From an uncultured Candidatus Saccharibacteria bacterium (GTDB taxonomy: Bacteria > Patescibacteriota > Minisyncoccia > Phycocordibacterales > CAYSCM01), in assembly GCA_964429815.1 (NCBI GenBank), contig CAYSCM010000001.1, forward strand, positions 32,001-96,000: a DNA stretch of 64,000 nt, in the 5' to 3' direction. This document shows, one piece after another, positions 1,029 through 31,246 of the stretch; position 1 is the stretch's first letter, and every line of letters begins with the position of its first letter. Made by a program: the position numbers and the translations under genes. The notes below the pieces were generated by a model. The model was not told the DNA's origin. It searched no databases and was given only the letters and a program-made list of their open reading frames with translations.

Positions 1029-1160
1029 GGTCCCTCCTGTTTGTTTGTTGGCTACTGTTTGGCCGGACGCATTCTGACACATCCATTTTATTTGTCAATA
1101 TTCTTCCAGGCTGTCTGGCAATAGAAACCCGTGCTAAGCTTCGCGAGTAACAAACGCGCT

Positions 1161-1697: not shown

Positions 1698-1737
1698 CCC
1701 AGTGACCCTTTATATGCGTGGTATGGTTATCTCACCT

Positions 1738-2454: not shown

Positions 2455-2564
2455 CCGCAGTCACTAGACAAATCATCGATTTTCTGGTCTATTGACACCA
2501 GTAACAGATCGCCCTCTAAAAATGTTTAGAGGGTAGGCTCTTTTACAGTTTACAGGAGGAACCA

Positions 2565-6299: not shown

Positions 6300-6931
6300 G
6301 AGGCCGTCGGGATGGATTCCTTGTCGCGGTTTGAGAAAAACAGGTAGTCGACGATGGCGTGGAAGAAAACCGCGTGAAGCGCCTCAACGGGACCGTAGGC
6401 ACCTTTTCCTGTCTCAATGATTATCTTGTGGTGACAGAGGCTCTTCGCTTTGCCTCCGTCAAAACCAAGAACGCCTATCGCCGTGCCGCCCTTAGCGCAT
6501 ATGTACTCGATCGCGCGAAGCACATTGGGGGAATTGCCACTTGCGGAAATGACGATGAGCACATCGTCGGGACGAAAAATGTGCTTAAGCTGGTCCGCAA
6601 AAACGTTCTCGTAGCCGACATCGTTCCCGAGCGCCGTCACGGCGGCGATATTGTTGAGCGCGTGAATACGAAACGGCTTTTCTTCCGTACCACCCCCGTT
6701 CGTGGTGAGATCGGCCGCAAAGTGAGCCGCCATGGCAGCGCTCCCCCCGTTGCCGGCGATGTAGATCGTAGAGCCCCTCTCCCGGGCCTTTTGAAGCACG
6801 TCGATAATCTCCTCGACCGCTTTGGAATCTACGGCGGAAGCAAGCTCGAAGGCATGCGCAAGATACCCTTCCATAAATTCGGGTACCGATCCTTTTGTCT
6901 TTTGATAGATGGTATCGACGTGTCCTCTCAT
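6296..6931 (-). CDS. gmhA: SIS-domain sedoheptulose-7-phosphate isomerase (GmhA-like)
   Basis: IYIAGNGGSAAMAAHFAADL and VISASGNSPNVLRAIEY motifs. 4-nt overlap with the next gene. Confidence 0.7.
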   Translation of the reverse strand: MRGHVDTIYQKTKGSVPEFMEGYLAHAFELASAVDSKAVEEIIDVLQKARERGSTIYIAGNGGSAAMAAHFAADLTTNGGGTEEKPFRIHALNNIAAVTALGNDVGYENVFADQLKHIFRPDDVLIVISASGNSPNVLRAIEYICAKGGTAIGVLGFDGGKAKSLCHHKIIIETGKGAYGPVEALHAVFFHAIVDYLFFSNRDKESIPTAS

Positions 6932-7932
6932 AGCGTTGTGAGCACCCCGCGGATGAGCTTCCCTTCCTCGAGGTCTTTGAGGGCGGCTCCTATCTCGTCG
7001 AAGGAATACTCTTTCGTAAGTAACTTATCCAAGCACATGACCTTCGGGTTTTCAACGTATTCACGCGCGTAGCGAGGAATGTCGCGGTCGAGCTCGCTCT
7101 CTCCGCCCCAGGTGCCGTAAAGCTTTTTGCCCTTGATGAGCCCGAAAGGGTTGATCGATATGGTTTCCCCGGGCGCAAGGTTTCCTGCAATAACGACGGT
7201 CCCGGCGTCCTTGACCGCGCGGTAGGCGCTCTCCATGGCGCCCTTGTTTCCCGAACACTCGACGGCCACATCGAAATCCTTTCCCTGAAACTCTTCGGCA
7301 GAGATCGCTTCATCGACGCCGAGCTCCTTTTTCGCATGCGCGAGCTTCCACGGAACGACGTCGATCGCGGTAACGTGAGCACCCTTCATGACGGCTCGAA
7401 TGAGTGCACTCGCTCCGATCCCCCCGATGCCGAATATAACCACTCGTTTGCCGTTGAGGTCTCCTAGGCGGTCGATGATACCCATGCCGGTCGGCACCGC
7501 GCACCCAAGAAGTGCCGCAATCGCGGGCTCCACCCCTTTTGACACCTTGGTGACACGATTCTCTGAGACGACCGCAAGCTCGGTAAACGTCGCCACGGAG
7601 CCACCGTTTACCTTCCCTTCTTTGCTTTGATACGTCGGCACCGGAGCGGATATACCCTCTCCAAGGATCCAACTTGCAACCACATAATCTCCGCTCCTTA
7701 CTTTCTGCACGCCTTCTCCGGCCGCGACCACCTCCGCTGCGGCTTCATGTCCCAATAAGTGGGGAATATATTCCGCTCCTTTCCTGCCGCGGATTTCATT
7801 GAGTTGGCTGTGGCAAAGTCCTGTCGCTAGCACTTTAATAAGTACCTGCCCCTTTTGAAGGGAGGGAACCTCAAGCTCCTCGATGGAGAGCGGTCCACCG
7901 ACGACGCGGAGTACTGCAGCGCGCGTTTTCAT
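6928..7932 (-). CDS. zinc-type (MDR) alcohol dehydrogenase family oxidoreductase
   Basis: GLCHSQLNE, GHEAAAEVVAAGEGV and GIGGIGASAL motifs. Start MKTRAAVL at 7932 is preferred over the track start at 7998. Confidence 0.75.
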   Translation of the reverse strand: MKTRAAVLRVVGGPLSIEELEVPSLQKGQVLIKVLATGLCHSQLNEIRGRKGAEYIPHLLGHEAAAEVVAAGEGVQKVRSGDYVVASWILGEGISAPVPTYQSKEGKVNGGSVATFTELAVVSENRVTKVSKGVEPAIAALLGCAVPTGMGIIDRLGDLNGKRVVIFGIGGIGASALIRAVMKGAHVTAIDVVPWKLAHAKKELGVDEAISAEEFQGKDFDVAVECSGNKGAMESAYRAVKDAGTVVIAGNLAPGETISINPFGLIKGKKLYGTWGGESELDRDIPRYAREYVENPKVMCLDKLLTKEYSFDEIGAALKDLEEGKLIRGVLTTL

Positions 7933-7933
7933 G

Positions 7934-8587
7934 CTAGGGGATAAACCAGTAGTAGTCACCCGTGTAGCCGACCTCGGCGAAGAGTTTTTTCCAATCATCG
8001 ACAGATAGGATGGTCTTTGCAGTAAGATTCCACTTCATCATGCGATCCTTCTCTTCTTCATGGTGGTAGGCGTCGACGGTAATGAACGAGTGTTTTCCTT
8101 TCACACGCTCAATCTCTCGAAGAGCCTCTTTACACTCAGGCAGTGGTAGGTTGTGAATGGTGTTAATCGAAATCACGAGATCGTAGGATTTATCCGCAAA
8201 TTGACTAAGATTTCTTGCATCTCCAACCGATACTGCGCCCGCAATTGAGGGCATGGCATTTTCGATAGCGTAGGAGGAAACATCAATACCGCGAACCACC
8301 ATGTGGGGAAGCCAATAGAGAAAATCATTAAGCATAAATCCCTTAGCACACCCGACATCAAGTACCGAAGAGTTGTTGTTGAGTCCGTAGTAATTTATGA
8401 AATCCCGAACCACCGGTACCCACCTCCCATCATAGCGGAAGCCGCCGTAGCCCTGATCCCTGGTGCCATCAAAAAACTCCCTGCCAAACTTTCGGGCAGT
8501 AGCAACATCCTCAGGAGACTTTTGTCCTCGAGCTTCAATGTTGCGTTTGGCTTTTGGATATTTCGAAAGAAGATCGATTTCTGCCAT
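7934..8587 (-). CDS. class I SAM-dependent methyltransferase
   Basis: VLDVGCAKGFMLNDF motif I. Confidence 0.7.
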   Translation of the reverse strand: MAEIDLLSKYPKAKRNIEARGQKSPEDVATARKFGREFFDGTRDQGYGGFRYDGRWVPVVRDFINYYGLNNNSSVLDVGCAKGFMLNDFLYWLPHMVVRGIDVSSYAIENAMPSIAGAVSVGDARNLSQFADKSYDLVISINTIHNLPLPECKEALREIERVKGKHSFITVDAYHHEEEKDRMMKWNLTAKTILSVDDWKKLFAEVGYTGDYYWFIP

Positions 8588-8596
8588 AGTGGTTGG

Positions 8597-10366
8597 TTAT
8601 TTTTTTTCGGGAAGAAGCTTAACCATCATGTTGTCATTGAACTCTTTTCTTGCAAGTAGCGGCTCGGGATCCTCGAGCGGCCGACCGAACTTTACCTGCG
8701 GGATTACGCGGTGCTTCGGGTTAATCTCGATGTTACAAAACACAGGCCCCCTCATCGCGAGCACCTTCTTAACTCCCCCGCTCAACTCGCGGTTCTTCTT
8801 GATCGTAATGGTTTTGAAGCCAAAGGAGGAAGCAATTTTGGCAAAGTCTGGGAACGCAAGTCCTCCCCCTTCCGAAGACGCAAGATACGCCGAATTAAAC
8901 CACTGATCTTGAGTCTGCTGTATCATACTGTAGCCGTGGTTATTCAATACAAAAATCTTGATCGGAAGTTTGTGCTTGAGAAGGGTACTTAACTCTTGCA
9001 AATTCATTTGGAGTGAACCATCTCCGGTTACACAAATAATTGATTTCTTGTTAAGCGCCAGGCTTACCCCAATGCTCGCCGGCAAAGCCCACCCCATCGC
9101 GGTGTTGTTCCAATCGTGGTAAAGACGCTGACCTTTCTTGAAGGAAAATCCCTGCATCATCCATGCGACCGTGCAGCCGGTATCAATGACCATTACTTCG
9201 TTCTGACGCGTGTAGCGAGAGAGCTCCTCAACAAATACATACGGATTGACCCCTTTCTCTTTGTAGTACGCGGGTGGGCACATGGGATATTTTTTCTTCC
9301 ATGCGGCAATACGTCTAAGCCAGGGTGAGATGTCGTTTTTTGGCAAACGTGCGGCGTGCTTTTGAAATGCCTTCAGCAGCTCTTTTGCGTCACCGGAGAT
9401 ACGCACATCGACTTTCAGGCCAAATTTTTTAAACTTCTTAAGTTCGTAGGGGTCAATATCGATGACTATCTTTTTTGCCTCTCGCGCAAACGTGTTGGGA
9501 GGACTACCCGTCGATTTGGTATCAAGACGGCTTCCGATTGAGAGGATCATGTCAGCGTTCTGGACGGCAAAATTGGCAAACCGCGTGCCGTGAGTGCCAA
9601 AGGTGCCGATGCGAAGTGGATGACTCTCTGGCAGGAGATCCCCTGCCCCCCATGTGAGTGCCGCAGGAAAGCCGAGTGTTTCCAAAAGTGAGATGGCCTC
9701 TTTTTCGGCCCCCGCGAGGTGGATTCCCCACCCAAACACAACGACGGGGCGCTTCGCCTGCCGTAGATAGTTTATGCTTCGAGCTACATCAACCGGCGCT
9801 TTCTTCTTCTCGACGGAGGGTGTAAACGAGGGAAGCTCTCCTGGATTAATTTCTCTGCGCTGAATGTCGTCGGGAATATCGAGCACTACGGGTCCTGGCC
9901 TACCACTTCGCGCCAGAAAGATCGCTTTCTCAAGCTCGTAGCGTATGCGCCTCTCATCGGTGATGAGTATCGCGTACTTAGTGATAGGACGATACATTTC
10001 GACCGTTGCCGTTTCTTGAAAACCCACTTGCCGCACGTTGGTATGACCTTTCATCCTAAAGGTGGCTACTTGGCCGGTAATAAATATGACGGGTACCGAA
10101 TCGTAGTAGGCGGAGCACACTCCCGTGATCATGTTCGTAGCACCTGGCCCTGAGGTGGACATCGCTACACCGAGGCCACCCGTGGCCCTCGCGTACCCGT
10201 CGGCAGCCATTGCCCCCGCTTGCTCGTGTCCTGGACAGATGACCTCCATTCCCCCCGTGCGCGCCACCGAATGAATAAGGTGAAGGGATGCTCCGCCGGA
10301 GATGGCAAAGACATGCTTCACCCCTTCTTTGCGGAGAACCTGTGCTACGTAGTCGGTGAGCTTCAT
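8597..10366 (-). CDS. thiamine-diphosphate enzyme of the acetolactate-synthase large-subunit family
   Basis: 589 aa with three-domain ALS architecture: N-terminal GVKHVFAISGGASL and C-terminal GDGSLQMNLQELST ThDP motif. Confidence 0.8.
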   Translation of the reverse strand: MKLTDYVAQVLRKEGVKHVFAISGGASLHLIHSVARTGGMEVICPGHEQAGAMAADGYARATGGLGVAMSTSGPGATNMITGVCSAYYDSVPVIFITGQVATFRMKGHTNVRQVGFQETATVEMYRPITKYAILITDERRIRYELEKAIFLARSGRPGPVVLDIPDDIQRREINPGELPSFTPSVEKKKAPVDVARSINYLRQAKRPVVVFGWGIHLAGAEKEAISLLETLGFPAALTWGAGDLLPESHPLRIGTFGTHGTRFANFAVQNADMILSIGSRLDTKSTGSPPNTFAREAKKIVIDIDPYELKKFKKFGLKVDVRISGDAKELLKAFQKHAARLPKNDISPWLRRIAAWKKKYPMCPPAYYKEKGVNPYVFVEELSRYTRQNEVMVIDTGCTVAWMMQGFSFKKGQRLYHDWNNTAMGWALPASIGVSLALNKKSIICVTGDGSLQMNLQELSTLLKHKLPIKIFVLNNHGYSMIQQTQDQWFNSAYLASSEGGGLAFPDFAKIASSFGFKTITIKKNRELSGGVKKVLAMRGPVFCNIEINPKHRVIPQVKFGRPLEDPEPLLARKEFNDNMMVKLLPEKK

Positions 10367-10370
10367 GGCG

Positions 10371-11228
10371 CTACCAGGGCATCTGCTCCTTAACGCTTAT
10401 AAAGAGTGTCCCGTCACGGTAGCTCTCGGGCATATCGCCGGCTTTTGTGACAAGTCCCCACCCTATCTTCTGCGAGAACAAATTGACGCCGGAGCCTGTA
10501 AAGTGCTTGAAAATGTGCTTGGCATTCTCCGCGGTCCCAACCTCGACCAGGCCGTCACAGCTCTCCCAATCGGAAGCTTCGGTCGAGAGGAGTACTTCCT
10601 TCTCGTGCCCTTCGACGTCCATTTTGATGAGATCAGCGCCGGCGAGAATCGGCCCGAACGCTTCGAGCTCCACGGAGAACATTTCCCGATCCCCGTAGAC
10701 GTCGTGCTTTGCTCCCGAGAGGTGACTCCCCGTAGTGTTGCCGAGCACTCGGGTAAAATCTGCTGAACCCGAGCGACTTGAGACGGCGCTGTTGTGAAGG
10801 CTGGCAGAATTACATCCGTTACGCGCAAGATTTTTTTTGAGGATATCGAAATGAACCGGATCGGGCTCGTAGGAGGAAACCTTAAAACCACAACGACAAA
10901 GGATAATCGAGTGAAGTCCAATATTTGCTCCGAGGTCTACAACGCTCGTATAGCGATTGCGATTGCGCCAGTAAAAACTGAAAATAACGAGTTCATTGAG
11001 GTCAAAGAGATTCCGCGAATCGACATTACCCATGTTGTGGTATGGAAACGAGATATCTCCAAATGGCGGAAAGTGGACCGACTCTTTTGAATCAACGGGA
11101 AAGAGCCTCTCCACTTCCTTCCGAGCTTTGGCGGCACGTTCTTTGAATGGCGCGCTTGTCGGAGTATGAGAGGGTAATTCCTGCGGGAGCGTGGCAAAGA
11201 TATTCTCCAAAAAAGCCGAGGATTCCAT
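10371..11228 (-). CDS. FkbM-family methyltransferase
   Basis: VVDLGANIGLHSIIL...YEPDPVHFDILKKNL is typical of FkbM. Confidence 0.7.
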   Translation of the reverse strand: MESSAFLENIFATLPQELPSHTPTSAPFKERAAKARKEVERLFPVDSKESVHFPPFGDISFPYHNMGNVDSRNLFDLNELVIFSFYWRNRNRYTSVVDLGANIGLHSIILCRCGFKVSSYEPDPVHFDILKKNLARNGCNSASLHNSAVSSRSGSADFTRVLGNTTGSHLSGAKHDVYGDREMFSVELEAFGPILAGADLIKMDVEGHEKEVLLSTEASDWESCDGLVEVGTAENAKHIFKHFTGSGVNLFSQKIGWGLVTKAGDMPESYRDGTLFISVKEQMPW

Positions 11229-11244
11229 GACGGGAGATACCCTA

Positions 11245-12042
11245 TCAGATTTTTCGTAATTTTAATAGCTCGGGGTCACGCGCGAGCGTTTTTGAAAAGC
11301 GCGCGCTCCCCCACGCGTCATAGACAACGTGTACATCTCTTCCCCCGACTACCTTTTTTGCTGACCCAATGACCCAGTCGAGACAGTCGAGAACTCGCTC
11401 CATGGGTATAAAGTCCCCGCGCGCTAGCTTTTTCCTTGTTCGAGCATACGTATCGCCCGCGCGCCTGCCGGCGGTGATAGTCTCCTGATGGATTTTGCTG
11501 CGCACCCAACCGGGGCCTATGGTGACGAAGCGAGCATCGTTCAGCTCCGCGTCGAGGATTTCAAACATTTTTATGGTCGCTATCTTTGAAACGGTATACG
11601 CCGAGAAATTGCGTGGTGCGTTGTTCGTCCCCCCACCAGAAAATGAAATTATGCAGGGTTTTTTGGATTTCGAACGTCTGGGCAGAAGTCCGTGGATGAT
11701 GCCCATGTGAGAAAGAAAATTGAGGCGAATTGATTTTTCCCAGTCTCCGAAAGAAACGCGTTGAAAAGCTCCTATGGGCGTAAGGGTCGCCGGAGCCAGT
11801 ACAAGAACGTCCCAGGCCACCGCGAGGCTCCGCAACGTACGTAGCGCCCTATGTACAGAGGCAGGTCGAGCGACGTCACAGTGTATAAGGTGTGCGCCAA
11901 GTTTTTGCAATCCTTCTGTGGTGTGGCTGCCGGTTCTATACGTGCCGAAAACCGCCCAGCCGCGGTTTAAGTATCTTCGAGCTATGGCGGTGCCGATATC
12001 GCTTGAAATGCCGACGATGATTATTGAGCCAGTTTTTTTCAT
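11245..12042 (-). CDS. short-chain dehydrogenase/reductase (SDR)
   Basis: GISSDIGTAIARRYL NAD(P)-binding motif and YTVSK catalytic motif. Confidence 0.75.
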   Translation of the reverse strand: MKKTGSIIIVGISSDIGTAIARRYLNRGWAVFGTYRTGSHTTEGLQKLGAHLIHCDVARPASVHRALRTLRSLAVAWDVLVLAPATLTPIGAFQRVSFGDWEKSIRLNFLSHMGIIHGLLPRRSKSKKPCIISFSGGGTNNAPRNFSAYTVSKIATIKMFEILDAELNDARFVTIGPGWVRSKIHQETITAGRRAGDTYARTRKKLARGDFIPMERVLDCLDWVIGSAKKVVGGRDVHVVYDAWGSARFSKTLARDPELLKLRKI

Positions 12043-12215
12043 GACGCGCTCTTTTGGTTGATGACGCTCGCGTTTTTCACGAATATGCCTATACTACACT
12101 ACTGCGCCACCGCAGGTTTCCAACCTACAAAACGCAGTGGAAAAGAAAAATTAATGGGTACGGTGAATTACAACGGGTCGAAACTTGACCCGTCTCTGGT
12201 AGAGTTGTACAGAAC

Positions 12216-13496
12216 ATGCGCCAAAAATTGAGCACCCTTGTCGAAAAACTGACGGTCGCGACCGGCATAAACTTTTCCTACCTCCTGCGCGGAGGGTCCT
12301 GGGCGTTTTCCGAGCAGGTGGTTACCAACGCCATCTCCCTCCTCCAGGCCATCGCGTTTGCCAACCTTATCTCTCCGCAGACGTATGGAGTGTTTAGTGT
12401 CGTGCAATCGTGGATAGGCATTCTCGTTACGTTCGCGCTCGGGAGCCTTCCAAACGCGCTTATAAAAAGCGTTGCGGAAGGCAACGACGGGGAGCTCAAA
12501 CGCGGATTTCTCCTCAAGCTTAAGTATGCTCCCCTTGCCTCTCTGCTCGGGCTCGGATTCTCCTTCTACTATCTATTTATAGGGAACAATACGACCCTCG
12601 CTTACTCGTTTCTCATTGCTTCGTTTTGCATGCCGCTTTACGTAGCGCTTCCGCAGGTCACGTTCTTCCTGTTCGCCAAGGGAGCATTTCTCGATAAGTT
12701 CATCGTGCAAGTGAGCGTTAGTCTTGCTTCGCTGGCAGGAATGACTATTTCAATGCTCTATTTCGGTTCTGTTCCATACCTGATGCTCGCCTACTTCATT
12801 CCACCGATCATCGTGAACGGCATCTTTTTTTGGCGCACGCTGCGCACCAAGGTTCATAATGCCAAGACCGGCGCGAACACGGAGCGGTTTGCGCTCCACC
12901 TTACGGGCATGAGTCTTCTTGGTTCGATAACCAAAAACATCGACCAACTCCTCATGTTCCACTTCAGCGGCGCAGTTCAGCTCGCGGTATATAAATTTGC
13001 CTTGATTCCCATACGAAAGCTGGAGACCTTTTTCCAGATCATCCTCGATCTGCTCCTCCCGCGATTTGCCAAGAGAGAGTACCGCGAGATTTACCAGGGG
13101 TTCGACAGAAAGCTCCTCCTTTCAGGCGCTTTTTCGTTGACGGTCGTGGCTGTTTATTTTTTCAGCATCCCCTACCTCTACAAGCTCTTTTTCCCGAAAT
13201 ACACCGACGCGGTGATATACTCGCGACTCCTTTCCCTGCTGTTTTTGTTTGGCCCTCTCTCATACGTTCAGCAGCTTTGGCTTGCGAAGGCGGAAACTAA
13301 ACGTCTCTATTTTTTAAAAATTCTCGGTGATTCCACCCGGATCTCACTTCATGTCGCGCTTATTCCCGTATTTGGGATCGCCGGTGCAGTGGGAAGCCGG
13401 ATGGTCGCATCCTCCTTTGTCAGCACCGCGGCATTCATTTTATTTTTGAAGGATAGGAGACGGTACGGTAAAGGCTCGAAGCGCCAATCGCAGTAA
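12216..13496 (+). CDS. Wzx-like polysaccharide/oligosaccharide flippase (MOP superfamily)
   Basis: 426 aa, polytopic and hydrophobic throughout, in a glycan-locus context. Confidence 0.65.
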   Translation: MRQKLSTLVEKLTVATGINFSYLLRGGSWAFSEQVVTNAISLLQAIAFANLISPQTYGVFSVVQSWIGILVTFALGSLPNALIKSVAEGNDGELKRGFLLKLKYAPLASLLGLGFSFYYLFIGNNTTLAYSFLIASFCMPLYVALPQVTFFLFAKGAFLDKFIVQVSVSLASLAGMTISMLYFGSVPYLMLAYFIPPIIVNGIFFWRTLRTKVHNAKTGANTERFALHLTGMSLLGSITKNIDQLLMFHFSGAVQLAVYKFALIPIRKLETFFQIILDLLLPRFAKREYREIYQGFDRKLLLSGAFSLTVVAVYFFSIPYLYKLFFPKYTDAVIYSRLLSLLFLFGPLSYVQQLWLAKAETKRLYFLKILGDSTRISLHVALIPVFGIAGAVGSRMVASSFVSTAAFILFLKDRRRYGKGSKRQSQ

Positions 13497-13508
13497 AAAA
13501 CCTTACTA

Positions 13509-14732
13509 TCACGCGCTCCCGCGGGGAGCGAGGGTGTGCGGCCAGGTAAGTACGCCAAGATCTGCCTCCTCGATGTTCTCTTTCCATTTTCGCATATCCG
13601 AAACCGAGATAAGATGTGCAAATTCCTTTTTCAGGGTTTCGAGTGTTTCCTGTTCCCAGGAAACTTTCTGAAATGCTTGTCGTTGCCACGGAAACGAGTC
13701 ACCTTCCTTGAGCCAGCTGTAGTTGTTGGCGACGTCGGGCATCACGAAACTGGACGCAAAGTACGCTATATCATCCCGCAAAAAGGCCCACGAGAGAGGG
13801 CCACTCGAGACGCACAGGTAAAAGAGCGCGCGCTGTACTAGGGCTAGATCCTGCTCGCTGTTCGTCCCATAGTCTTTGGTAAAGATAACGTTTGGCCCGC
13901 GCAGCGCTTCATTGATCTCGGCTCCCCTGCCTAAAATAATGAAGGTGCACTCGGGATACTGCTTCGAACAGTACCTAAAAAATTCTCGCCAGACTTTCGG
14001 TTTAGCGTTTCGGTGCGAGGCAAAAAAGGGATTGCTGCGCAGGCTGACCGCTACGGCGTATCCAGGCGCATGTTTTTTGATAAATGCTCGTGCCCACGCA
14101 TCAGTGAGGGCGGGTATCTTCAGCTTCGGTAGAGATCCGTACCGCTCGTAGAATTCCTTGAAAAACAAGTAGCCACGACGGTAGGGAGAATTGCTATTTA
14201 CGTAGTCAAAAAGAGATGGGGTGAGGATATACTTTCCCCGGCGCTCAGCGAGAAAAGACTCGAATTCATCCCTGGAATCGAAAATGTGGACCGACCCCAA
14301 CTTTGGATTGGTACGCAAAACAGGAAAAATCTCAATGAAGTGGAGCGGGACATTTTCTTTGGTGATCCAACCCGCATATTTAGAATGTCGACTAGGTCTT
14401 TCTCTGTCGTATACAAAAGCGTAGTCGATCTTTTCAACTTCATGGATGTGGGCCTCGCATAGCGTCCTGATCTGGTGCTCGATCAGTATCCCAAATGAGA
14501 CATCGGTGGTGAGAAAATCATTAATGCCCAGAATCCTTCGATCATTTCGCTCGTGGCGACGCAGAACGTAGCGGGCATAGCGCATCGAACCAACAATGCC
14601 TCGACGATACCAACGTTCATACACGCGATACGTCAAAAAATTGACTGCGACATCAAAGGCGGGTACCAAAAAGGGGGGCAGCATTTTTCGAAAATGCACA
14701 ACCGCAGGTTTCTTGTTGAGTGCGCGCAACAT
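13509..14732 (-). CDS. hypothetical protein, possibly a GT9-like (heptosyltransferase-like) GT-B enzyme
   Basis: Long intact ORF inside the operon. The C-terminal half (AVAVSLRS...KVWREFFRYCSKQYPECTFIILGRGAE) only loosely recalls GT9; the function is a guess. Confidence 0.4.
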   Translation of the reverse strand: MLRALNKKPAVVHFRKMLPPFLVPAFDVAVNFLTYRVYERWYRRGIVGSMRYARYVLRRHERNDRRILGINDFLTTDVSFGILIEHQIRTLCEAHIHEVEKIDYAFVYDRERPSRHSKYAGWITKENVPLHFIEIFPVLRTNPKLGSVHIFDSRDEFESFLAERRGKYILTPSLFDYVNSNSPYRRGYLFFKEFYERYGSLPKLKIPALTDAWARAFIKKHAPGYAVAVSLRSNPFFASHRNAKPKVWREFFRYCSKQYPECTFIILGRGAEINEALRGPNVIFTKDYGTNSEQDLALVQRALFYLCVSSGPLSWAFLRDDIAYFASSFVMPDVANNYSWLKEGDSFPWQRQAFQKVSWEQETLETLKKEFAHLISVSDMRKWKENIEEADLGVLTWPHTLAPRGSA

Positions 14733-14733
14733 G

Positions 14734-15231
14734 TTAGCGTCGGTAGGTTGAATTTTTTTTGATTGCCGTAATGATATCGCGTGTGCTTAATTTTTTGTCT
14801 TTCGTAAAGGTAATCCTGCAACCCACCTTCTGAGCGCTTTGTATTTCCTCTGCGAAATCTTTATTCGGCGGGATACCGCGGTAATCGGGACCGCGCACAT
14901 ACAGGTCCGGCTTGAGAGCACGTATGAATCTTGATCCATTGTTAGCATCATTAATGAACACGAAATCAACCGGGCGAAGCTGCGAGAGCATGTAGGCCCG
15001 CATATGCTCGGTGAACACCGGGCGGCCGATACCTTTTTGTCTTCGTACCTGTTTATCACTTGCGATCGCAACCACGAGCACATCACAGAGGCGCTTTGCG
15101 GATTCAAAATGCATCGCATGCCCGGGGTGGAGCAGATCATAGTTGCCGTTACAAAAACCGATGATCTTCCCCTCCTTTTTACGTCGAGCAAGTATGGGAC
15201 GAAGCTGCTGAAAGGAGATGATGCGTGCCAT
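14734..15231 (-). CDS. cytidylyltransferase-fold nucleotidyltransferase (HldC/RfaE domain II or TagD-like)
   Basis: GFCNGNYDLLHPGHAMHFESAK carries the HxGH motif. Confidence 0.7.
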   Translation of the reverse strand: MARIISFQQLRPILARRKKEGKIIGFCNGNYDLLHPGHAMHFESAKRLCDVLVVAIASDKQVRRQKGIGRPVFTEHMRAYMLSQLRPVDFVFINDANNGSRFIRALKPDLYVRGPDYRGIPPNKDFAEEIQSAQKVGCRITFTKDKKLSTRDIITAIKKNSTYRR

Positions 15232-15233
15232 AG

Positions 15234-16238
15234 CTACGGCTGATGGATATACTCGCGTGGATACTTTTTAAGTACATCCCACGACTCAGTGAGCCAAGAG
15301 ATAACTTCCTCAACCCCTCGCTCGAGCGGAATGCGCGGTTTCCACCCAAGAGCCTTCGCGGTCCCTCCAAACGAAAGCGCATAGACCTTATCCTGTCCAG
15401 GACGACCTTCACTCACTTTGGCGACTTCATTGAAACGAACCCCCATCTTGCGACACACGAGCTCAACGACGCCTCGAATGGAGCTCTGAGTGTGTGTCGA
15501 AAAATGATACACGCCACCAGACTTCCCTTTCTGGATCACGAGCTCAATACCGCGACATACATCCTCGATGTGTATGAAGCTACGCTTGATGGTGCCCCCT
15601 TGGTGAAGCGAGAGTTTAGTACCAACAAGGACCGAGAGGACCGTTTTTGGGATTACTTTGAAGAGCTGCTGATGCGCTCCATAGACATTCGCCGAGCGCA
15701 CAAAGCACACCGGAAAACCCTTGGTCTTATGGAGCGCGATGAGGAAGAGATCCCCTGCTCCCTTTGAGGCGGCGTAGGGCGTCGTCGGATTAAAGTAGGT
15801 AAGCGTCTCGGGGCCGCTGTATGAACCGTAAATTTCCGGCGTCGATATTTGTATGTACTTTTTTAAATAGGCCGTGTCTTTGAGGTGATCCGCGAGAGCA
15901 ACAATACCCAAGCAGTTGGTTCTAAACCAATCAAGCGGTTTTTTCCAACTAGCCTCAACGATGCCTTGGGCCGCGAAATTCACGACTATGTCAGGACGCT
16001 CGCTATCAAGGAGAGCGGCAAGTTTTTTTACATCTTTGTTTACGTCGAGCTTATGGAAACGATAGCGGCGCGCGGAGGGTTTTTTCCCTTTGTAGAGGTA
16101 GGGCAAAAATTCAGGCTCCTTCTCAGATGAGCGACTAATACCGATGACTATGTAATTTGTTTTCCGAAGCAGGTAATCGACGAGGTGTCCTCCCGAAAAA
16201 GAATTACTCCCGATGATAGCTATTTTTTTCAGAGCCAT
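15234..16238 (-). CDS. NAD-dependent epimerase/dehydratase (NDP-sugar 4,6-dehydratase-like)
   Basis: IAIIGSNSFSGGHLVDYLL and YAASKGAGD motifs. Confidence 0.8.
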   Translation of the reverse strand: MALKKIAIIGSNSFSGGHLVDYLLRKTNYIVIGISRSSEKEPEFLPYLYKGKKPSARRYRFHKLDVNKDVKKLAALLDSERPDIVVNFAAQGIVEASWKKPLDWFRTNCLGIVALADHLKDTAYLKKYIQISTPEIYGSYSGPETLTYFNPTTPYAASKGAGDLFLIALHKTKGFPVCFVRSANVYGAHQQLFKVIPKTVLSVLVGTKLSLHQGGTIKRSFIHIEDVCRGIELVIQKGKSGGVYHFSTHTQSSIRGVVELVCRKMGVRFNEVAKVSEGRPGQDKVYALSFGGTAKALGWKPRIPLERGVEEVISWLTESWDVLKKYPREYIHQP

Positions 16239-16249
16239 GTGAGCAAAGT

Positions 16250-17317
16250 TTAAAACGGACCGGTAAAACGCTTATCGGGCACATCGAGCGGCGTCGTGCG
16301 TTTCTTCTCTTCCGCTGCGACGAGCGACTCTAATTTTTTTGTATCCCCCTCAACCATAGAGACCACCATTCTGGCCATATCGATATAGCGCGGGTAGTAC
16401 TCATTGGCAAGCGCAGGCGTTGATGGGCTTGGCAGATCCGGCGCGGTAAGCCGGCGAGGGTTGGTCCGTAGACTGATTGTCGAATCCTCCGCGACTTGTG
16501 TGATTATCTCTCCCGCGACCCCGAAGCTGCGATGCCCGAGATCGGCCACAAGCAGCCGTCCTGTTTTTTTGACTGAGCGTGCTATTGTCTCGGTATCAAG
16601 AGGTTTAAGACTTCGCACATCGACGACCTCGGCGCTCACGCCAACCTTTTGGAGTAACTCCTGCGCACGCAGAGCCTCGTAGGTGAAGTAGGACGTTGTT
16701 ACAAGGGAAACATCGCTTCCCCGGCGCATTATACGAGCCTTGCCGATGGGCACCCTATAGTGACCCTCGGGAACATCTTCAGCAAGATCATGGAGCCATC
16801 GATGATCGATATATATGACCGGATTATCGTCCTCAATCGCGGCGAGCATCAGTCCCTTGGCATCGGAGGGGGTCGCGGGCATCACTACCTTGAGCCCGGG
16901 GATGTGCGCATAGAGGGCTTGGAGATTTTGTGAATGCTGCGGGCCCTGCCCCCATCCCATGCCGATGGTCATTTTCACCGTAAGGGGTACCGATTGCGCT
17001 CCGTTGTACATGTACGACCATTTCGCCGCATTGTTGATCACCTGCTCGATCGCAAGAAGGCTGAAGTCAACTCTCTGGTGCGTTAGGACTGGGCGCATCC
17101 CATTTACCGCCGCACCGATGCAGATCCCGGTTACCGCGAGCTCAGAAGTTGGCATATCAAGTACTCGTTTTGCGCCATGTTTTTTCTGAAGTCCCGTCGT
17201 CGTGCCAAAAATTCCCTTTGGATCAGGGACACCCAATCCTATAAGGAACACCGACTTGTCTTTAGCCAGAGCAAGATCAAATGCTTCTCGTATTGCTTGC
17301 GAATATGTTTTACGCAT
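16250..17317 (-). CDS. 2-oxoacid dehydrogenase E1 component, beta subunit-like (transketolase-like)
   Basis: Pyrimidine-binding and C-terminal transketolase domains (IGLGVPDPKGIFGTT...). Start MRKTYSQAIREAF overlaps the alpha-subunit stop by 8 nt. Confidence 0.8.
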   Translation of the reverse strand: MRKTYSQAIREAFDLALAKDKSVFLIGLGVPDPKGIFGTTTGLQKKHGAKRVLDMPTSELAVTGICIGAAVNGMRPVLTHQRVDFSLLAIEQVINNAAKWSYMYNGAQSVPLTVKMTIGMGWGQGPQHSQNLQALYAHIPGLKVVMPATPSDAKGLMLAAIEDDNPVIYIDHRWLHDLAEDVPEGHYRVPIGKARIMRRGSDVSLVTTSYFTYEALRAQELLQKVGVSAEVVDVRSLKPLDTETIARSVKKTGRLLVADLGHRSFGVAGEIITQVAEDSTISLRTNPRRLTAPDLPSPSTPALANEYYPRYIDMARMVVSMVEGDTKKLESLVAAEEKKRTTPLDVPDKRFTGPF

Positions 17318-18269
17318 AGAGGTGTTCGGCAAGAGCTTCCCTCTTTGGAAACGGGCTCTTTTCGGCAAAACGGAATGCTCCATCAACCTGTCGAATCGCA
17401 TCGTTTCGGATTTTTTCGATGAGGTCGCTAGAAAGCACCTCTTTCTTCAGGAGCTCACGCTCGAACATCGCGACAGGATCCTTCTTCTTCCACACGGCAA
17501 CCTCCTTCGGATCACGGTACCCAAGCTCGTCATCAAAATTTGGGCCGCAGTGCTCACGGTAGCGGTAGGTCGAAAATTCCAAAAAAACTGGACCCGAACG
17601 GACGGCTTTTCTGGCTTTTGTTGCGGCAGCGAGAACGGTCGAAACATCGTTACCATCGTGGCGCGACGCAGGAATGCCGTGCCCTTTGGCAAGCGCGTAG
17701 ATGGGGCGTTTAGGTTGGCGCTCAGAGAGATGTGTGTACACCGAGAAGCGGTTATCTTCGCACACAAATACAATGGGTAGTTTGTGGAGCGCCGCAAAAT
17801 TGAGACTTTCATGGAAAGCCCCCTCCTCGACGGTACCATCCCCAAAAAACGAAACGATGACGCGGTTTTCCTTCCGGAGCTTCGCTGCAAACGCCGCTCC
17901 CGTTGCAATCGGAATGCTGTTGCCGACGATGGGTGTGGCCCCGCCAAAACCGGCCTTGAGATCAATGAGGTGCATGGAGCCGCCCTTGCCACCGCAGCAG
18001 CCCGTAGCTTTGCCATAGAGCTCAGCCATCATCGCATTGAGGTTGCCGCCTTTAGCGAGGTAATGAGCGTGACAGCGATGGGTACTATACACGAGATCCT
18101 CTGCCGTGAGCGCCGCGCACACCCCAACCGCAACGGCCTCTTGGCCGATCGAGAGGTGGACGGGACAGCGCATCTTTCCTTCGCTATAGCGACGAGCTAT
18201 CGTCTCTTCCGTCGTGCGTATGAGAATGAGCTTGCGGTAGAGCGATAGGAGTGCTTCATTTTTCTTCAT
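17310..18269 (-). CDS. 2-oxoacid dehydrogenase E1 component, alpha subunit-like (ThDP-binding)
   Basis: GKGGSMH and the ThDP motif region FFGDGTVEEGAFHESLNFA. Confidence 0.8.
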   Translation of the reverse strand: MKKNEALLSLYRKLILIRTTEETIARRYSEGKMRCPVHLSIGQEAVAVGVCAALTAEDLVYSTHRCHAHYLAKGGNLNAMMAELYGKATGCCGGKGGSMHLIDLKAGFGGATPIVGNSIPIATGAAFAAKLRKENRVIVSFFGDGTVEEGAFHESLNFAALHKLPIVFVCEDNRFSVYTHLSERQPKRPIYALAKGHGIPASRHDGNDVSTVLAAATKARKAVRSGPVFLEFSTYRYREHCGPNFDDELGYRDPKEVAVWKKKDPVAMFERELLKKEVLSSDLIEKIRNDAIRQVDGAFRFAEKSPFPKREALAEHLYA

Positions 18270-18270
18270 G

Positions 18271-19248
18271 CTACGTAAGCCCTAGCTTCTGCATCATCTT
18301 GACGTTGTGGTAGAGAGGATTGTTGAGACCGTCTGTTATGTCGCCCCGTTCGTATGCTGCCTTTATAGAGCGCACTGCCTCGGGGATATCAAACTGGGCC
18401 TTAAAGCCGAGTACACGCTCTATCTTGTCGGCATTGAGCTTGTAGGAGCGGTTATCGACGATCGAAGCCGATACCTTGATCGAAACTGCGGGGTCGTTGA
18501 GAACATCCTTGATGAGTTTCCCCGTATCGAGCACCGAAATATTCCAGAACCCGGTATTGAAGACTTCGCGATGAATTTTCTCCTGCGGAGCTGCGAGGAG
18601 CGTCTCGTAAATACGCACCATGTCGCGGATATTTATATGGGGTCGCAACTGGCTCCCGCCGAAGATGGTTATTTTCTTGTTTACGAGCGCATGCATGGTA
18701 AGTAAGTTCACGGTGAGGTCAAGTCGCAAACGCGTCGCGTAACCACACACCGTGCCCGGACGCACCGTCACGTAGTTGAGGTTGGTACCCTCAAGAACCT
18801 TTTCACACTCGAGCTTGTACTTGCCGTAATCCGTGATCGGCCTTCCCACCCTCTCCTCGGTCACTTCCCCCTCTTGGATACCATAGGTGCTCGCGGAGCT
18901 TGCGTAGATAAACCGACCGATGTCGTTTTCCTTCGCCGCATCGATGACGTTGAAGAACGCGTCGTAGTTGATCGATTTCCCGAGCGTTGGGTCGAGCTCG
19001 AAGCTCGGGTCGTTCGACACGCACGCAAGGTGAATGAGGGAATCGCAGCCTTTGGCCGACTCGATTAACTTTTTTCGGTCACGGATATCTCCCCGGATCT
19101 CAGTGAGGTTTTTCTGCTTGATGCCGGAAAAAACATCGCCGTAGAGATAGAGGTCGTACACAACGACGCTATGGCCCGCTTCGAGAAGTTTCGGAACGAG
19201 AGCGCTGCCGACGTATCCCGCTCCGCCTGTGATGAAGATCTTGGTCAT
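18271..19248 (-). CDS. NAD-dependent epimerase/dehydratase
   Basis: ITGGAGYVGSALVPKLL and YGKYK motifs. Confidence 0.8.
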   Translation of the reverse strand: MTKIFITGGAGYVGSALVPKLLEAGHSVVVYDLYLYGDVFSGIKQKNLTEIRGDIRDRKKLIESAKGCDSLIHLACVSNDPSFELDPTLGKSINYDAFFNVIDAAKENDIGRFIYASSASTYGIQEGEVTEERVGRPITDYGKYKLECEKVLEGTNLNYVTVRPGTVCGYATRLRLDLTVNLLTMHALVNKKITIFGGSQLRPHINIRDMVRIYETLLAAPQEKIHREVFNTGFWNISVLDTGKLIKDVLNDPAVSIKVSASIVDNRSYKLNADKIERVLGFKAQFDIPEAVRSIKAAYERGDITDGLNNPLYHNVKMMQKLGLT

Positions 19249-19250
19249 AG

Positions 19251-20309
19251 TTATGCGAGAAGTTCGCTTATAAAATCTTTGAGTTCCGCTTTCTTGATAG
19301 GTCTCTTATTGCCCACTATGCCTATCGCAAGTGCTCCGACTGCATTGCCGATAAAGCCGACCACGTCGAGCGGCACCCGGTTATGTACCAACGGGGCCGT
19401 CAGGGCCAGGAAAGCATCTCCCGCCCCCATTCGGTCGGTAAACGAGCTCCTCATCGTGGGGGCGTTCGTGATCTTCCCCCGATTATATAGGTAACAACCC
19501 ATGGGCCCTCCGGTCACAATGAAGTTTTTGTACCGGAGCTTGGTGGCGACGTTTCGCATGACGCTTATTAGGTCGTGATTGCGCTCGCGCGCCTCGAGCC
19601 GGAGCTCTCGCTCATCGGCGCAAACATAGTCGGCTTTTGGAAATACCGAAAGGGTATGAAACCCCATATTACCCGCGTTCGCCTGGGCCGTAAGGGCCAA
19701 AAAGGGTGAACGCTGCATAAGCTCCTTACGGCTCGCCCGGTCGAGCATGCCGTGCCCGAAATCACCGCAGATGACCAGATCGTGGGACTTGAAGAGCTTG
19801 CGAAGTGTCCGGACGACCTCCGCGCTCTCGCTTGCGCTCGGAGACTTGTCGCTCATAACGTAAAACTCGAGGAGTTTCTGAAGCGGTACCTCTTCCATAA
19901 ACCGCTTCTTCATGATGGTGGGAGCGCTCTTTTTGTAGAAAAAGACTGGCTTGACGTTTTTCGGGAGCGAGCGGCGAACGAATGCTTCTTGGGAATTTTC
20001 CTCGCCGAGCATGGCAAAAAGCGTCACCTCCTTGCAAAAGCTCGCGAGATGGTTGGCGATGGCGATGGACCCTCCGGCGTAGAGCTCTTTTTTTATTTCT
20101 TTGAGCGCGACGATGGGTTCCTTAGCGGACTTTCCAATGGACCTTCCGAACGTATATTCGTCGAGAATAGCCTCGCCCACCACGAGGACTCGCGTGTCTT
20201 TCATCGCTTCGAGCACATCAAAAAGGTACTCTTTCGAATACCTCTTCTTGAAACGCATCAGGTACGAATTCCAGTCGGTGCTAAGATTCTCTTTCATGGA
20301 TTCCGACAT
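19251..20309 (-). CDS. PfkB-family sugar kinase (HldA/RfaE domain I-like heptose-7-phosphate kinase candidate)
   Basis: VLVVGEAILDEY... and C-terminal DRMGAGDAFLA motifs. Start MSESMKEN at 20309; the track's 100-aa N-terminal extension overlaps the upstream gene. Confidence 0.7.
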   Translation of the reverse strand: MSESMKENLSTDWNSYLMRFKKRYSKEYLFDVLEAMKDTRVLVVGEAILDEYTFGRSIGKSAKEPIVALKEIKKELYAGGSIAIANHLASFCKEVTLFAMLGEENSQEAFVRRSLPKNVKPVFFYKKSAPTIMKKRFMEEVPLQKLLEFYVMSDKSPSASESAEVVRTLRKLFKSHDLVICGDFGHGMLDRASRKELMQRSPFLALTAQANAGNMGFHTLSVFPKADYVCADERELRLEARERNHDLISVMRNVATKLRYKNFIVTGGPMGCYLYNRGKITNAPTMRSSFTDRMGAGDAFLALTAPLVHNRVPLDVVGFIGNAVGALAIGIVGNKRPIKKAELKDFISELLA

Positions 20310-20353
20310 GGTACCTGATGGGTGGGAAAAGAAAAGCCGCGAAAAGCTTCCTC

Positions 20354-24713: not shown

Positions 24714-24742
24714 TTGACTATTGCAGATAATCGTGCTACAAT
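24714..24742 (+). promoter_or_regulatory. near-consensus sigma70 promoter with extended -10
   Basis: TTGACT (24714-24719), 17-nt spacer, TGcTACAAT (24734-24742). Lies 32 nt upstream of the Nudix ATG. Confidence 0.55.
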
Positions 24743-24774
24743 TTTGCCCGGTCTACAAAGCCGAGGAGGCACAC

Positions 24775-29876: not shown

Positions 29877-29974
29877 GAGAGTGAGTGTTACACGTAAACT
29901 AAATCGACATCGGGAAAGTTGCAATGAGGAGCCTGCGTTTTACTTGTGGCGCTGAGGGGATATAATCCTTACCT

Positions 29975-31243: not shown

Positions 31244-31246
31244 TCG

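Follow-up and report, generated by a model that had tools for sequence, protein, structure and literature searches.

YerE-like lyases and E1 alpha/beta enzymes are two types of ThDP enzyme that are both established for carbon branching of sugars (PMC9306805, PMC12247030); in the literature the former are tied to LPS and the latter to actinomycete antibiotics (PMC12247030). The YerE-like lyases YpYerE, PpYerE, ErwE, MMAR_2332 and JanthE share a three-domain ALS-type fold, are encoded in surface-glycan loci together with a keto-sugar-forming short-chain dehydrogenase (SDR) and a nearby ketoreductase, and have nucleotide-4-keto sugars as their known physiological acceptors (PMC9306805). JanthE has been characterised as an enzyme that accepts ketones (PMC12188165). 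Known E1 pairs of the alpha-KADH2 type have been assigned the addition of a C2 (acetyl) branch to nucleotide-keto sugars (PMC12247030). The pairs AviB1/B2 and KbDH-alpha/beta and those of aldgamycin and paulomycin all belong to sugar pathways, are translationally coupled and have no E2 or E3 partner, features shared by the E1 pair described here. The ADP-L-glycero-beta-D-manno-heptose pathway (GmhA, HldE, GmhB, HldD) offers a further comparison. In the 6-deoxyheptose pathways (DmhA/WcbK/DdahA), a GDP-heptose is dehydrated at positions 4 and 6 to a 4-keto intermediate, the GDP-alpha-heptose being supplied by a GHMP kinase and HddC.

Gene content of the locus

The window, that is the whole 64-kb stretch of DNA analysed, carries three ThDP genes, all at the coordinates given in the original prediction and all on the minus strand. 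A 589-aa ALS-family protein (8597..10366) contains Pfam TPP_enzyme_N/M/C domains (E 1e-34 to 1e-39), and E1 alpha (alpha-KADH2 type, 319 aa, 17310..18269; PF00676, E 3e-68) is followed by E1 beta (355 aa, 16250..17317; Transket_pyr and Transketolase_C); the domain E-values for these genes are far beyond chance. The true E1 beta start is the ATG at 17317, giving a 355-aa protein of which an identical copy is already on record, and the listed 383-aa ORF from 17401 is overlong. From this start, the E1 beta frame shares 8 nt (ATGCGTAA) with the end of E1 alpha, which confirms that the pair at 16250-18269 is translationally coupled, as had been claimed. Domain scans of the ORFs detected no E2, E3 or IlvN gene and no lipoyl, 2-oxoacid_dh, Pyr_redox or ACT/IlvN domain, so that the reported absence of E2/E3 genes nearby holds for the entire 64 kb.

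The neighbouring domains agree with the described setting among epimerases, methyltransferases and a flippase. A Wzx-type flippase gene in the opposite orientation (12216..13496, plus strand; PF01943) separates two minus-strand blocks (5391-12042 and 13509-24669), within which neighbouring genes are spaced by -8 to +16 nt, the one exception being 44 nt between the kinase and TagF-like genes. Around the ALS-like gene, the first block encodes a divergent SIS-domain, GmhA-like sugar-phosphate isomerase (6296..6931; 95 bits against a 209-bit cut-off), a Zn-dependent medium-chain dehydrogenase (Zn-ADH; 6928..7932, start probably M23 of the listed ORF) that is a putative ketoreductase, a class I SAM methyltransferase (MT1; 7934..8587), an FkbM-family methyltransferase (10371..11228) and a classical SDR (11245..12042). 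The last of these is a putative branch ketoreductase and would be the role analogue of YerF.

The second block begins with an orphan 407-aa protein (13509..14732) predicted to adopt a GT9-like (ADP-heptose heptosyltransferase) fold. It continues with an RfaE-domain-II-like nucleotidyltransferase of 165 aa (14734..15231), an extended SDR resembling NDP-sugar 4,6-dehydratases (15234..16238; motifs STPEIYG and YAASK), the E1 pair, an extended SDR of GalE- or HldD-like type, either epimerase or oxidoreductase (18271..19248), and a PfkB-family, RfaE-domain-I-like sugar-phosphate kinase (19251..20309, start probably M102 of the listed ORF). The methyltransferases and the classical SDR were assigned by domain scans; the Zn-ADH, nucleotidyltransferase, GalE/HldD-like SDR and kinase by domain and NCBIfam scans. 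Accessory genes at 20354..24669 (minus strand, domain scan), encoding a TagF-like glycerophosphotransferase, a DegT aminotransferase, a methyltransferase and a GT4 glycosyltransferase, are common only to the closest relatives, the Saccharibacteria and Nomurabacteria loci (L003, L046).

Conservation across phyla

Among species-representative genomes we found 527 relatives of the ALS-like protein, the best 80 of which (48-67% identity) come from about 20 bacterial phyla and from Methanoregula, Woesearchaeota and other archaea; orthologues overall share 48-69% identity. Gene neighbourhoods were counted at 84 loci by two approaches, tblastn and an independent ORF clustering, and the latter recovered the identical core genes. 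MT1 accompanies the ALS-like gene most constantly (59-69 of 84 loci), and the classical SDR (58-69) mostly adjoins E1 beta or the ALS-like gene. The counts by tblastn are 63 for E1 beta, 60 for the dehydratase-like SDR, 50 for the epimerase-like SDR, 41 for the PfkB kinase and 37 for the RfaE-II-like nucleotidyltransferase, while E1 alpha was found near the ALS-like gene in 49-57 loci, the FkbM methyltransferase in 39-48, the Zn-ADH in 45-47, the SIS/GmhA cluster in 33-37 and the TagF-like gene in only 3-4. For MT1, the classical SDR, E1 alpha, FkbM, Zn-ADH and SIS, the upper figure of each range is the one obtained by tblastn. Both E1 subunits are present in 33 of the 40 well-flanked loci (at least 8 kb on each flank), the median distance to the ALS-like gene being 1.8 kb, and pairing with an E1 is the rule for the ALS-like family across genomes. 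Called-gene contexts from Elusimicrobia, Nomurabacteria and one ENA contig show the identical gene set. As part of our best overall explanation, we lean towards the three ThDP genes being core parts of one conserved, horizontally spread cassette of roughly 12 genes; a literature search found no description of this cassette.

Relationships of the ThDP enzymes

The ALS-like protein belongs to the same three-domain fold family as the YerE-like lyases, and its gene, as theirs do, lies in a surface-glycan locus near a putative keto-sugar-forming SDR and a putative ketoreductase. It retains the catalytic Glu48 (HEQ), the ThDP motif GDG-X25-NN (448-476) and an RLDTK motif of AHAS type. It scored under all curated AHAS cut-offs in the NCBIfam scan (449 bits against 538), and its closest PDB match was JanthE (8rph, 373 bits, about 36% identity), followed by 5ahk (310 bits, about 34%) and the top plant AHAS (302 bits). 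In an NJ tree with few reference sequences, the cassette enzymes formed a tight clade of their own (48-69% identity internally; 100/100) that was joined by its sister JanthE (88/100) and then by 5ahk (100/100), with E. coli IlvB and IlvI outside this grouping; the phylogenetic check proposed in the original prediction thus came down on the YerE-like side. Together, the scores, the best solved relative and the tree mark the ALS-like enzyme as YerE-like and speak for a sugar-pathway carboligase and against an IlvB. The cassette enzymes differ from JanthE in having the canonical GDG, where JanthE has CDG, in the ThDP motif, and a His at the FAD-stabilising position that is Tyr in both JanthE and 5ahk. 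Unlike the YerE-like lyases, they occur alongside a second ThDP enzyme, and their pathway context is ADP-heptose-like rather than that of a CDP-3,6-dideoxyhexose (Ddh). In some organisms MT1 is fused to the C-terminus of the ALS-like enzyme (residues 628-842 of fusion protein P0029 match MT1 at 58% identity), which links the methyltransferase to the same pathway.

Both E1 subunits score under the PDH cut-offs of NCBIfam (326 against 394 bits for E1 alpha), no E2 or E3 was found in the cassette loci of relatives, and E1 relatives lie within sugar clusters at 50-63 of the 84 loci, which argues that the pair is not a PDH. The E1 beta protein ends in a family-specific tail (...LDVPDKRFTGPF), conserved as DVPxxF(T/K)GPF among cassette E1 betas and lacking in PDH E1 beta; AviB and KbDH were compared by description, not sequence. 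In an NJ tree that included few references, five of them complex-type, and left out AviB, AlmD and KbDH, the cassette E1 betas were separated from the complex-type references (68/100) and grouped with E1 betas of E2-less sugar clusters on plasmids of Azospirillum and Solidesulfovibrio, where the E1 genes occur with SIS, kinase, SDR and DegT genes and without an ALS-like gene. The known sugar-branching pairs come from actinomycete antibiotic clusters, whereas the cassette pair resides in loci for cell-surface glycans in many phyla. Both active-site histidines used by PDH E1 for lipoyl acetylation are kept, so that an oxidative role is compatible with the sequence alone, and the assignment of the pair as a sugar-pathway carboligase instead of a dehydrogenase-complex component is partly supported. 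At the Methanoregula locus a split transketolase occupies the E1 position, suggesting C2 transfer as the function conserved at that locus; at another locus (L043) it is present together with E1 alpha/beta.

A possible route to a branched heptose

The best NCBIfam matches of the SIS protein, the kinase and the nucleotidyltransferase are GmhA and RfaE domains I and II. A GmhB-like phosphatase is missing from the 64-kb window, and one relative (L052) has a GmhB match that scores 177 bits, the cut-off being 178. All heptose-pathway homologues fall under the curated cut-offs, so that the pathway could start from a different ketose phosphate. In most relatives the nucleotidyltransferase is fused N-terminally to the kinase, the reverse of the order in E. 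coli HldE. The dehydratase-like SDR is an addition relative to the ADP-heptose pathway; it keeps T/E/Y/K without the Asp found in the 'TDE' motif of RmlB, and 4,6-dehydration by this protein is plausible. The concept resembles that of the 6-deoxyheptose pathways, from which the cassette differs in its PfkB kinase and RfaE-II-type nucleotidyltransferase. The orphan protein, with its predicted resemblance to GT9 heptosyltransferases, is the putative transferase for the sugar. Given the GmhA/HldE-like genes and this GT9-like transferase, an ADP-heptose-type acceptor is more likely than the CDP-3,6-dideoxyhexose of YerE. The branched-sugar role originally proposed is thus upheld in part: scores, trees and context favour sugar-pathway carboligases over IlvB and PDH, and the acceptor is likely a different one.

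On the strength of homology, gene-neighbourhood conservation and fold, we infer the following pathway, including its step order, donor acids and positions of attack. A ketose phosphate, most likely sedoheptulose-7-P, would first be a substrate for the GmhA-like isomerase; the PfkB kinase would then phosphorylate the sugar at position 1, and the RfaE-II-like enzyme would add the nucleotide to yield an ADP-heptose-type donor, from which the two extended SDRs (4,6-dehydratase-like and HldD/GalE-type oxidoreductase) would generate keto intermediates. The YerE-like enzyme and an E1 alpha/beta heterotetramer would each decarboxylate a 2-oxo acid (by default pyruvate) and add the acyl anion to a sugar carbonyl, forming two C-C bonds in total and hence either two branches or a single lengthened one. 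The classical SDR and the Zn-ADH would reduce the new acyloin ketones, the two methyltransferases would cap hydroxyl groups, the GT9-like protein would transfer the sugar, and Wzx would flip the lipid-linked unit. The genes could accordingly form two parallel lines, each with a keto-generating SDR, a ThDP carboligase, a ketoreductase and a methyltransferase. The product is probably a carbon-branched, methylated heptose for the cell surface, and the reading that we, by a modest measure, prefer is a cassette that builds a nucleotide-activated sugar of heptose type, heavily modified and destined for a surface glycan.

The ThDP enzymes might instead work before nucleotide activation by transketolase/DXP-synthase logic, the E1 pair and/or the ALS-like enzyme joining small precursors into a new ketose phosphate, branched or extended, that the divergent isomerase, kinase and nucleotidyltransferase then activate. 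The split transketolase replacing E1 alpha/beta in Methanoregula and accompanying it in L043, the lack of a GmhB gene in the window and the scores of those three enzymes well under heptose-pathway cut-offs, which fit a non-standard substrate, would all suit this scheme. We nevertheless consider it unlikely, since the ALS-like clade is sister to ketone-accepting enzymes whose acceptors are nucleotide-4-keto sugars (PMC9306805), about 60 of the 84 loci encode a dehydratase-like SDR that could provide the keto acceptor, and the GT9-like fold indicates an ordinary ADP-heptose-type donor scaffold. Less probable still is acetoin/butanediol-type chemistry, in which the ThDP enzymes, SDR and Zn-ADH would make a C4-C6 acyloin or diol as a non-carbohydrate glycan substituent, possibly via the kinase, nucleotidyltransferase and TagF-like phosphotransferase. 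The gene set does mirror acetoin metabolism (ALS, AcoAB-type E1 and butanediol dehydrogenases of the SDR and MDR types), the small nucleotidyltransferase bears a further resemblance to glycerol-3-P cytidylyltransferase, and a TagF-like CDP-alditol phosphotransferase gene adjoins in the window and its closest relatives. However, the rarity of that gene places it outside the core, which always includes nucleotide-sugar SDRs; the plasmid-borne E1 pairs keep SIS, kinase, SDR and DegT genes without an ALS-like gene, and the ALS-like clade is YerE-like, not catabolic-ALS-like.

The ThDP proteins share superfamilies, cofactor motifs and catalytic residues with IlvB/IlvI/IlvG and with PDH or acetoin-dehydrogenase E1, and the names that NCBIfam ranks first for them are those of the acetolactate synthase large subunit and of PDH E1 alpha and beta. 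A housekeeping acetohydroxyacid synthase and E1 located in a polysaccharide locus by chance is nonetheless very improbable. Every score is under the curated cut-offs, regulatory, E2 and E3 partners were not found in the 64 kb, the trees separate the proteins from IlvB/IlvI and from E2-linked E1 betas, and the sugar neighbourhood recurs over about 20 phyla and archaea. The host belongs to the CPR and is Parcubacteria-like, and to our knowledge CPR bacteria generally lack AHAS/PDH-type central pathways. The co-occurrence of neighbours (84 loci; 33 of 40) and the ALS-like and E1 beta trees effectively refute this housekeeping assignment, and neither the clades nor the neighbourhoods match those expected of housekeeping enzymes.

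The original prediction had regarded the presence of both enzyme types together as unusual. This is true of the literature consulted, but not of genomes, where most well-flanked loci of this family carry both. The pairing of ThDP enzymes is no local oddity, and recurs in archaea as well as in about 20 bacterial phyla.

Locus architecture and conservation of the cassette

The three ThDP-dependent enzyme genes on which the original prediction rested are present, all on the minus strand, and their domains and coordinates were confirmed. The ALS-like ORF (8597-10366, minus strand, 589 aa) contains all three TPP_enzyme domains (Pfam, E 1e-34 to 1e-39), E1 alpha (17310-18269, minus strand, 319 aa) matches PF00676 (E 3e-68), and E1 beta (16250-17317, minus strand, 355 aa) carries Transket_pyr and Transketolase_C domains. 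E1 beta starts at the ATG at 17317, which gives a protein of 355 aa rather than the 383 aa of a mechanical ORF list, and an identical 355-aa protein is on record. The stop of E1 alpha and the start of E1 beta share 8 nt, ATGCGTAA, a classic case of translational coupling, which bears out the coupling claimed for this pair.

Read along the minus strand from 20309, the genes encode a PfkB kinase (RfaE-I-like), a GalE/HldD-like SDR, E1 alpha, E1 beta, a 4,6-dehydratase-like SDR, an RfaE-II-like nucleotidyltransferase, an orphan 407-aa protein (13509-14732) and, on the opposite strand, Wzx; these are followed, down to 6296, by a classical SDR, an FkbM methyltransferase, the ALS-like enzyme, a class I methyltransferase (MT1, 7934-8587), a Zn-ADH and a GmhA-like SIS isomerase. 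Upstream lie genes for a TagF-like phosphotransferase, a DegT aminotransferase, a methyltransferase and a GT4 glycosyltransferase, and downstream those for a sulfotransferase, a methyltransferase, a B12-radical-SAM enzyme, a CMP-sugar-synthetase-like protein and a KdsC-like phosphatase. The oppositely oriented Wzx gene sits between two minus-strand blocks (5391-12042 and 13509-24669), within which intergenic gaps range from -8 to +16 nt, the exception being 44 nt that separate the kinase from the TagF-like gene.

The pairing of the ALS-like enzyme with the E1 alpha/beta pair is a conserved cassette. A search with the ALS-like protein returned thousands of matches, the best 120 of which aligned over the full length at 59-69% identity and came from Nomurabacteria, Nitrospirota, Saganbacteria, Elusimicrobia, Chlamydiae and Pirellulales. 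In three contexts taken from unrelated samples, the ALS-like gene was surrounded by the same set of genes, E1 alpha/beta among them. Scanning a single genome for each species yielded 527 relatives, the closest at 67% identity, and the best 80 of these (48-67% identity) were distributed over about 20 bacterial phyla as well as Methanoregula, Woesearchaeota and other archaea. Hosts include the cultured Pseudocolwellia agarivorans QM50 and Phormidium sp. FACHB-1136, and also Prochlorococcus single-cell genomes.

When the window proteins were used as tblastn queries against 84 loci containing the ALS-like gene, the most frequent partners were MT1 (69), the SDR (69), E1 beta (63), the dehydratase-like SDR (60), E1 alpha (57), the epimerase-like SDR (50) and FkbM (48), followed by Zn-ADH (47), the kinase (41), the nucleotidyltransferase (37) and SIS (37). 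The E1 pair lies within the sugar cassette in 50-63 of the 84 loci. Both subunits were found in 33 of the 40 loci having at least 8 kb on each flank, where the median distance from the ALS-like gene to E1 beta was 1.8 kb. A separate all-against-all clustering of ORFs recovered the same core; in most genomes it showed the kinase fused to the nucleotidyltransferase (median 512 aa). The CMP-sugar synthetase, KdsC-like phosphatase and B12-radical-SAM enzyme were considered as core components and rejected, being present in no more than about 6 of the 84 loci; on the tblastn counts over these loci, the TagF-like and DegT genes were likewise judged not to be core.

Fusions of the ALS-like enzyme with a methyltransferase were seen in two of the best 120 matches. 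The metagenome proteins P0029 and P0047 carry a class I methyltransferase fused to the ALS-like C-terminus, and in the window MT1 is a separate gene 9 nt downstream. In P0029, where the ALS-like part is N-terminal, residues 628-842 share 58% identity with MT1.

Affiliation of the two ThDP enzyme types

Biosynthetic AHAS (IlvB/IlvG/IlvI) differs from the ALS-like enzyme, which falls below every curated AHAS cut-off (best TIGR00118, 449 vs 538 bits) and for which Pfam scans detected no ACT/IlvN-type small-subunit gene nearby. Among PDB entries it matched 8rph (JanthE) best, at 373 bits, ahead of 5ahk, which we take to be PpYerE (310 bits), and the best plant AHAS (302 bits). JanthE is a characterised YerE-like enzyme that joins 2-oxo acids to ketones (PMC12188165). 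A neighbor-joining tree was built from 26 cassette proteins and a small reference set comprising JanthE, 5ahk and three E. coli proteins (IlvB, IlvI and Gcl). The cassette clade was monophyletic in this tree (100/100) and grouped with JanthE (88/100) and then with 5ahk (100/100), while IlvB and IlvI fell outside; within this small reference set, the placement agrees with the YerE-like rather than IlvB-like affiliation originally proposed.

The cofactor motifs are intact, with HEQ at Glu48 and GDGSLQMN...LNN at 448-476. As for the FAD-binding motif that was to be checked, the TPP_enzyme_M domain has an AHAS-type R-x-D-x-K motif, RLDTK, which aligns with RMDVR of 5ahk, an alignment from which we infer FAD binding. 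The genomic context offers candidates for both keto-sugar formation and ketoreduction, a 4,6-dehydratase-like SDR being present in about 60 and the SDR in 69 of the 84 loci. The cassette enzyme resembles YerE-like ThDP lyases in its affiliation with the ketone-accepting JanthE, in its cofactor motifs and in its sugar-gene neighborhood.

The E1 pair scores below the curated PDH cut-offs (E1 alpha 326 vs 394 bits, E1 beta 280 vs 321). Since both active-site histidines for lipoyl acetylation are kept, these residues do not discriminate between the two types of function. No lipoyl/E2, E3 or IlvN-type gene was detected when all ORFs of appreciable size in the 64 kb were scanned with Pfam, so that the lack of E2/E3 partners reported for the vicinity of the pair holds over the entire window, and E2 and E3 are absent from the cassette loci as well. 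In contrast, an E2 gene directly follows each of the complex-type E1 pairs on plasmids of Rhizobium, Halobaculum and Pseudoroseomonas.

A neighbor-joining tree of E1 beta proteins compared the E2-less proteins, namely those of the cassette, of plasmid sugar clusters in Azospirillum oryzae, A. lipoferum and Solidesulfovibrio magneticus and of a Streptomyces secondary-metabolite pair, with five complex-type references. The E2-less proteins clustered as one, apart from all five (68/100); as far as these complex-type references go, the tree agrees with the predicted separation from PDH. In addition, a conserved C-terminal tail, (H/L)DVP(D/G)xxF(T/K)GPF-COOH (16250-16290 in the window, and alike in the homologous loci L001-L081), is present in 44 of the 51 cassette E1 betas and reaches about 40 residues past the end of PDH E1 beta structures. 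It is missing from those E1 beta and transketolase-C versions that are shorter and divergent. Because of the missing E2/E3 genes, the tree grouping and the conserved tail, three lines of sequence evidence, we consider the E1 pair to be separate from complex-type E1. It differs from the E1 of PDH/acetoin-dehydrogenase complexes in its scores and in having neither E2 (lipoyl) nor E3, and is like the sugar-branching alpha-KADH2 enzymes, in which E1 alpha and beta act in a sugar pathway without these partners.

Predicted pathway and variants of the ThDP steps

The best curated families for the SIS, kinase and nucleotidyltransferase proteins were those of the ADP-heptose pathway, GmhA (95 vs 209), RfaE-I (101 vs 345) and RfaE-II (112 vs 181), all with scores below the equivalog cut-off; the Pseudocolwellia versions of these genes score higher. 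Two related loci additionally encode a GmhB-like phosphatase (177 bits against a cut-off of 178). The dehydratase-like SDR contains the motifs STPEIYG and YAASK, which give it a T/E/Y/K set of the GMD kind that lacks the RmlB Asp. Taken together, the GmhA/RfaE/GmhB-like families and these motifs lead us to favor a donor of the ADP-heptose type. The orphan 407-aa protein has a predicted GT-B fold closest to WaaC/WaaF, which likens it to the GT9 heptosyltransferases.

In the pathway we propose, a heptose-type sugar phosphate would be activated, two extended SDRs would create one or two keto positions, and two acyl-anion additions would follow, one by the YerE-like enzyme and the other by the E1 pair. 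The SDR and Zn-ADH would then reduce the new ketones, and O-methylation would precede transfer and flipping. By predicted role the gene set has a two-fold symmetry, in that keto-forming SDRs, carboligases, reductases and methyltransferases are each present twice. This is consistent with two rounds of branching, which may affect two separate positions of the ring or side chain or may follow one another on a single branch.

Two rival explanations concern the stage and the product of the ThDP reactions: the chemistry may take place at the sugar-phosphate stage, or the enzymes may synthesize a small acyloin or diol substituent. A third, in which the ThDP genes are housekeeping enzymes, is effectively excluded. 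Returning to two successive ThDP-dependent C-C bond formations on an ADP-heptose-derived sugar, we tentatively propose, as possible rather than probable, that paired enzymes of two superfamilies build an undescribed class of monosaccharide, that the E1 beta tail might link the enzymes physically, and that CPR bacteria, cyanobacteria, planctomycetes, proteobacteria and archaea alike would present the sugar on their surfaces.

Variant loci bear on the individual ThDP steps. In a Methanoregula MAG (L052, 3131-4886), a split transketolase, with its N- and C-terminal halves encoded by separate genes, replaces the E1 pair between the methyltransferase and the ALS-like gene. Here one ThDP C2-transfer enzyme seems to have taken the place of another that is not its orthologue, and because the transketolase holds the E1 position there, it suggests that the conserved function at this position is transfer of a C2 unit. 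Another locus (L043, 19625-21432) has a split transketolase alongside the E1 pair. In clusters on plasmids of Azospirillum and Solidesulfovibrio, the E1 pair has kinase, SIS, SDR, DegT and NUDIX genes as neighbors but the ALS-like gene is absent, indicating that the two ThDP steps are separable modules. These E1-only clusters lie on a plasmid of A. oryzae KACC 14407 (L088), pDMC1 of S. magneticus RS-1 (L090) and p6 of A. lipoferum 4B (L091), and contain varying mixes of kinase, SIS, SDR, DegT aminotransferase, NUDIX and radical-SAM genes. The E1-only variant possibly makes an aminoethyl-branched sugar.

Flanking modules and biological significance

A NUDIX hydrolase gene borders the locus (24721-25362, plus strand), and NUDIX genes also lie beside the E1 alpha/beta sugar clusters L088, L090, L063 and L064; the flanking protein could be a nucleotide-sugar (ADP-sugar) pyrophosphatase with a role in proofreading or recycling. 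A second deoxysugar module (29070-33283) encodes a sulfotransferase, a TylCIII-type sugar C-methyltransferase (29975-31243, Methyltransf_14) and two tandem GDP-mannose-4,6-dehydratase-family proteins. Its content suggests the synthesis of a separate C-methyl-branched 6-deoxy sugar and, together with the sulfotransferase at 5391-6299, a sulfated glycan. The left-flank genes (1131-4307, plus strand) encode the KdsC-like HAD phosphatase, the CMP-sugar-synthetase-like protein (CTP_transf_3) and the 580-aa B12-binding radical-SAM enzyme. They also occur beside the cassette in the Nomurabacteria, Saccharibacteria and Elusimicrobia loci, but in few besides these, and may represent an ulosonic-acid or C-methylation add-on.

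Elsewhere in the window, the rRNA genes (48309-64000, minus strand) are not linked to one another and their order is unusual: 23S (64000-61464, truncated at the window end) and 5S (61021-60916) are followed by genes for FtsW, GT4, Bac_transf, an epimerase, SecD and SecF, and then by 16S (51980-50519), tRNA-Ile (48616-48544) and tRNA-Leu (48392-48309). A lamin-tail-domain protein adjoins a VirD4/TraG-like type IV coupling protein (41719-44305, minus strand). The nearest named relatives of the window SecD belong to Paceibacterota, Parcubacteria, Wolfebacteria and Kaiserbacteria, from which we assign the window to a Parcubacteria-like CPR bacterium. A CPR host fits with the closest cassette relatives, which are found in Saccharibacteria and Nomurabacteria genomes.

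YerE-like enzymes have been tied to LPS sugars, and E1 alpha/beta (alpha-KADH2) enzymes to C2 branches in actinomycete antibiotics (PMC9306805, PMC12247030). Searches of the literature on ThDP/YerE sugars, heptoses with ThDP enzymes, branched heptoses, Coxiella virenose/dihydrohydroxystreptose loci and kibdelomycin turned up no account of a cassette that combines the two ThDP types; the in-silico survey of Krug et al. 2024 may list such clusters. Here one cassette joins both types of sugar-branching catalyst in a fixed combination and adds a heptose-type route of activation. For glycobiology, it provides a defined gene set and cultured hosts (QM50, FACHB-1136) in which to seek a new higher sugar, with Azospirillum and Solidesulfovibrio available for the E1-only variant, and for biocatalysis a large conserved family of predicted ketone-accepting carboligases. 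The spread of the cassette across a large part of bacterial diversity and to archaea implies a common, chemically undescribed surface sugar, and it is to one such sugar that a genome-reduced CPR bacterium commits a large locus.
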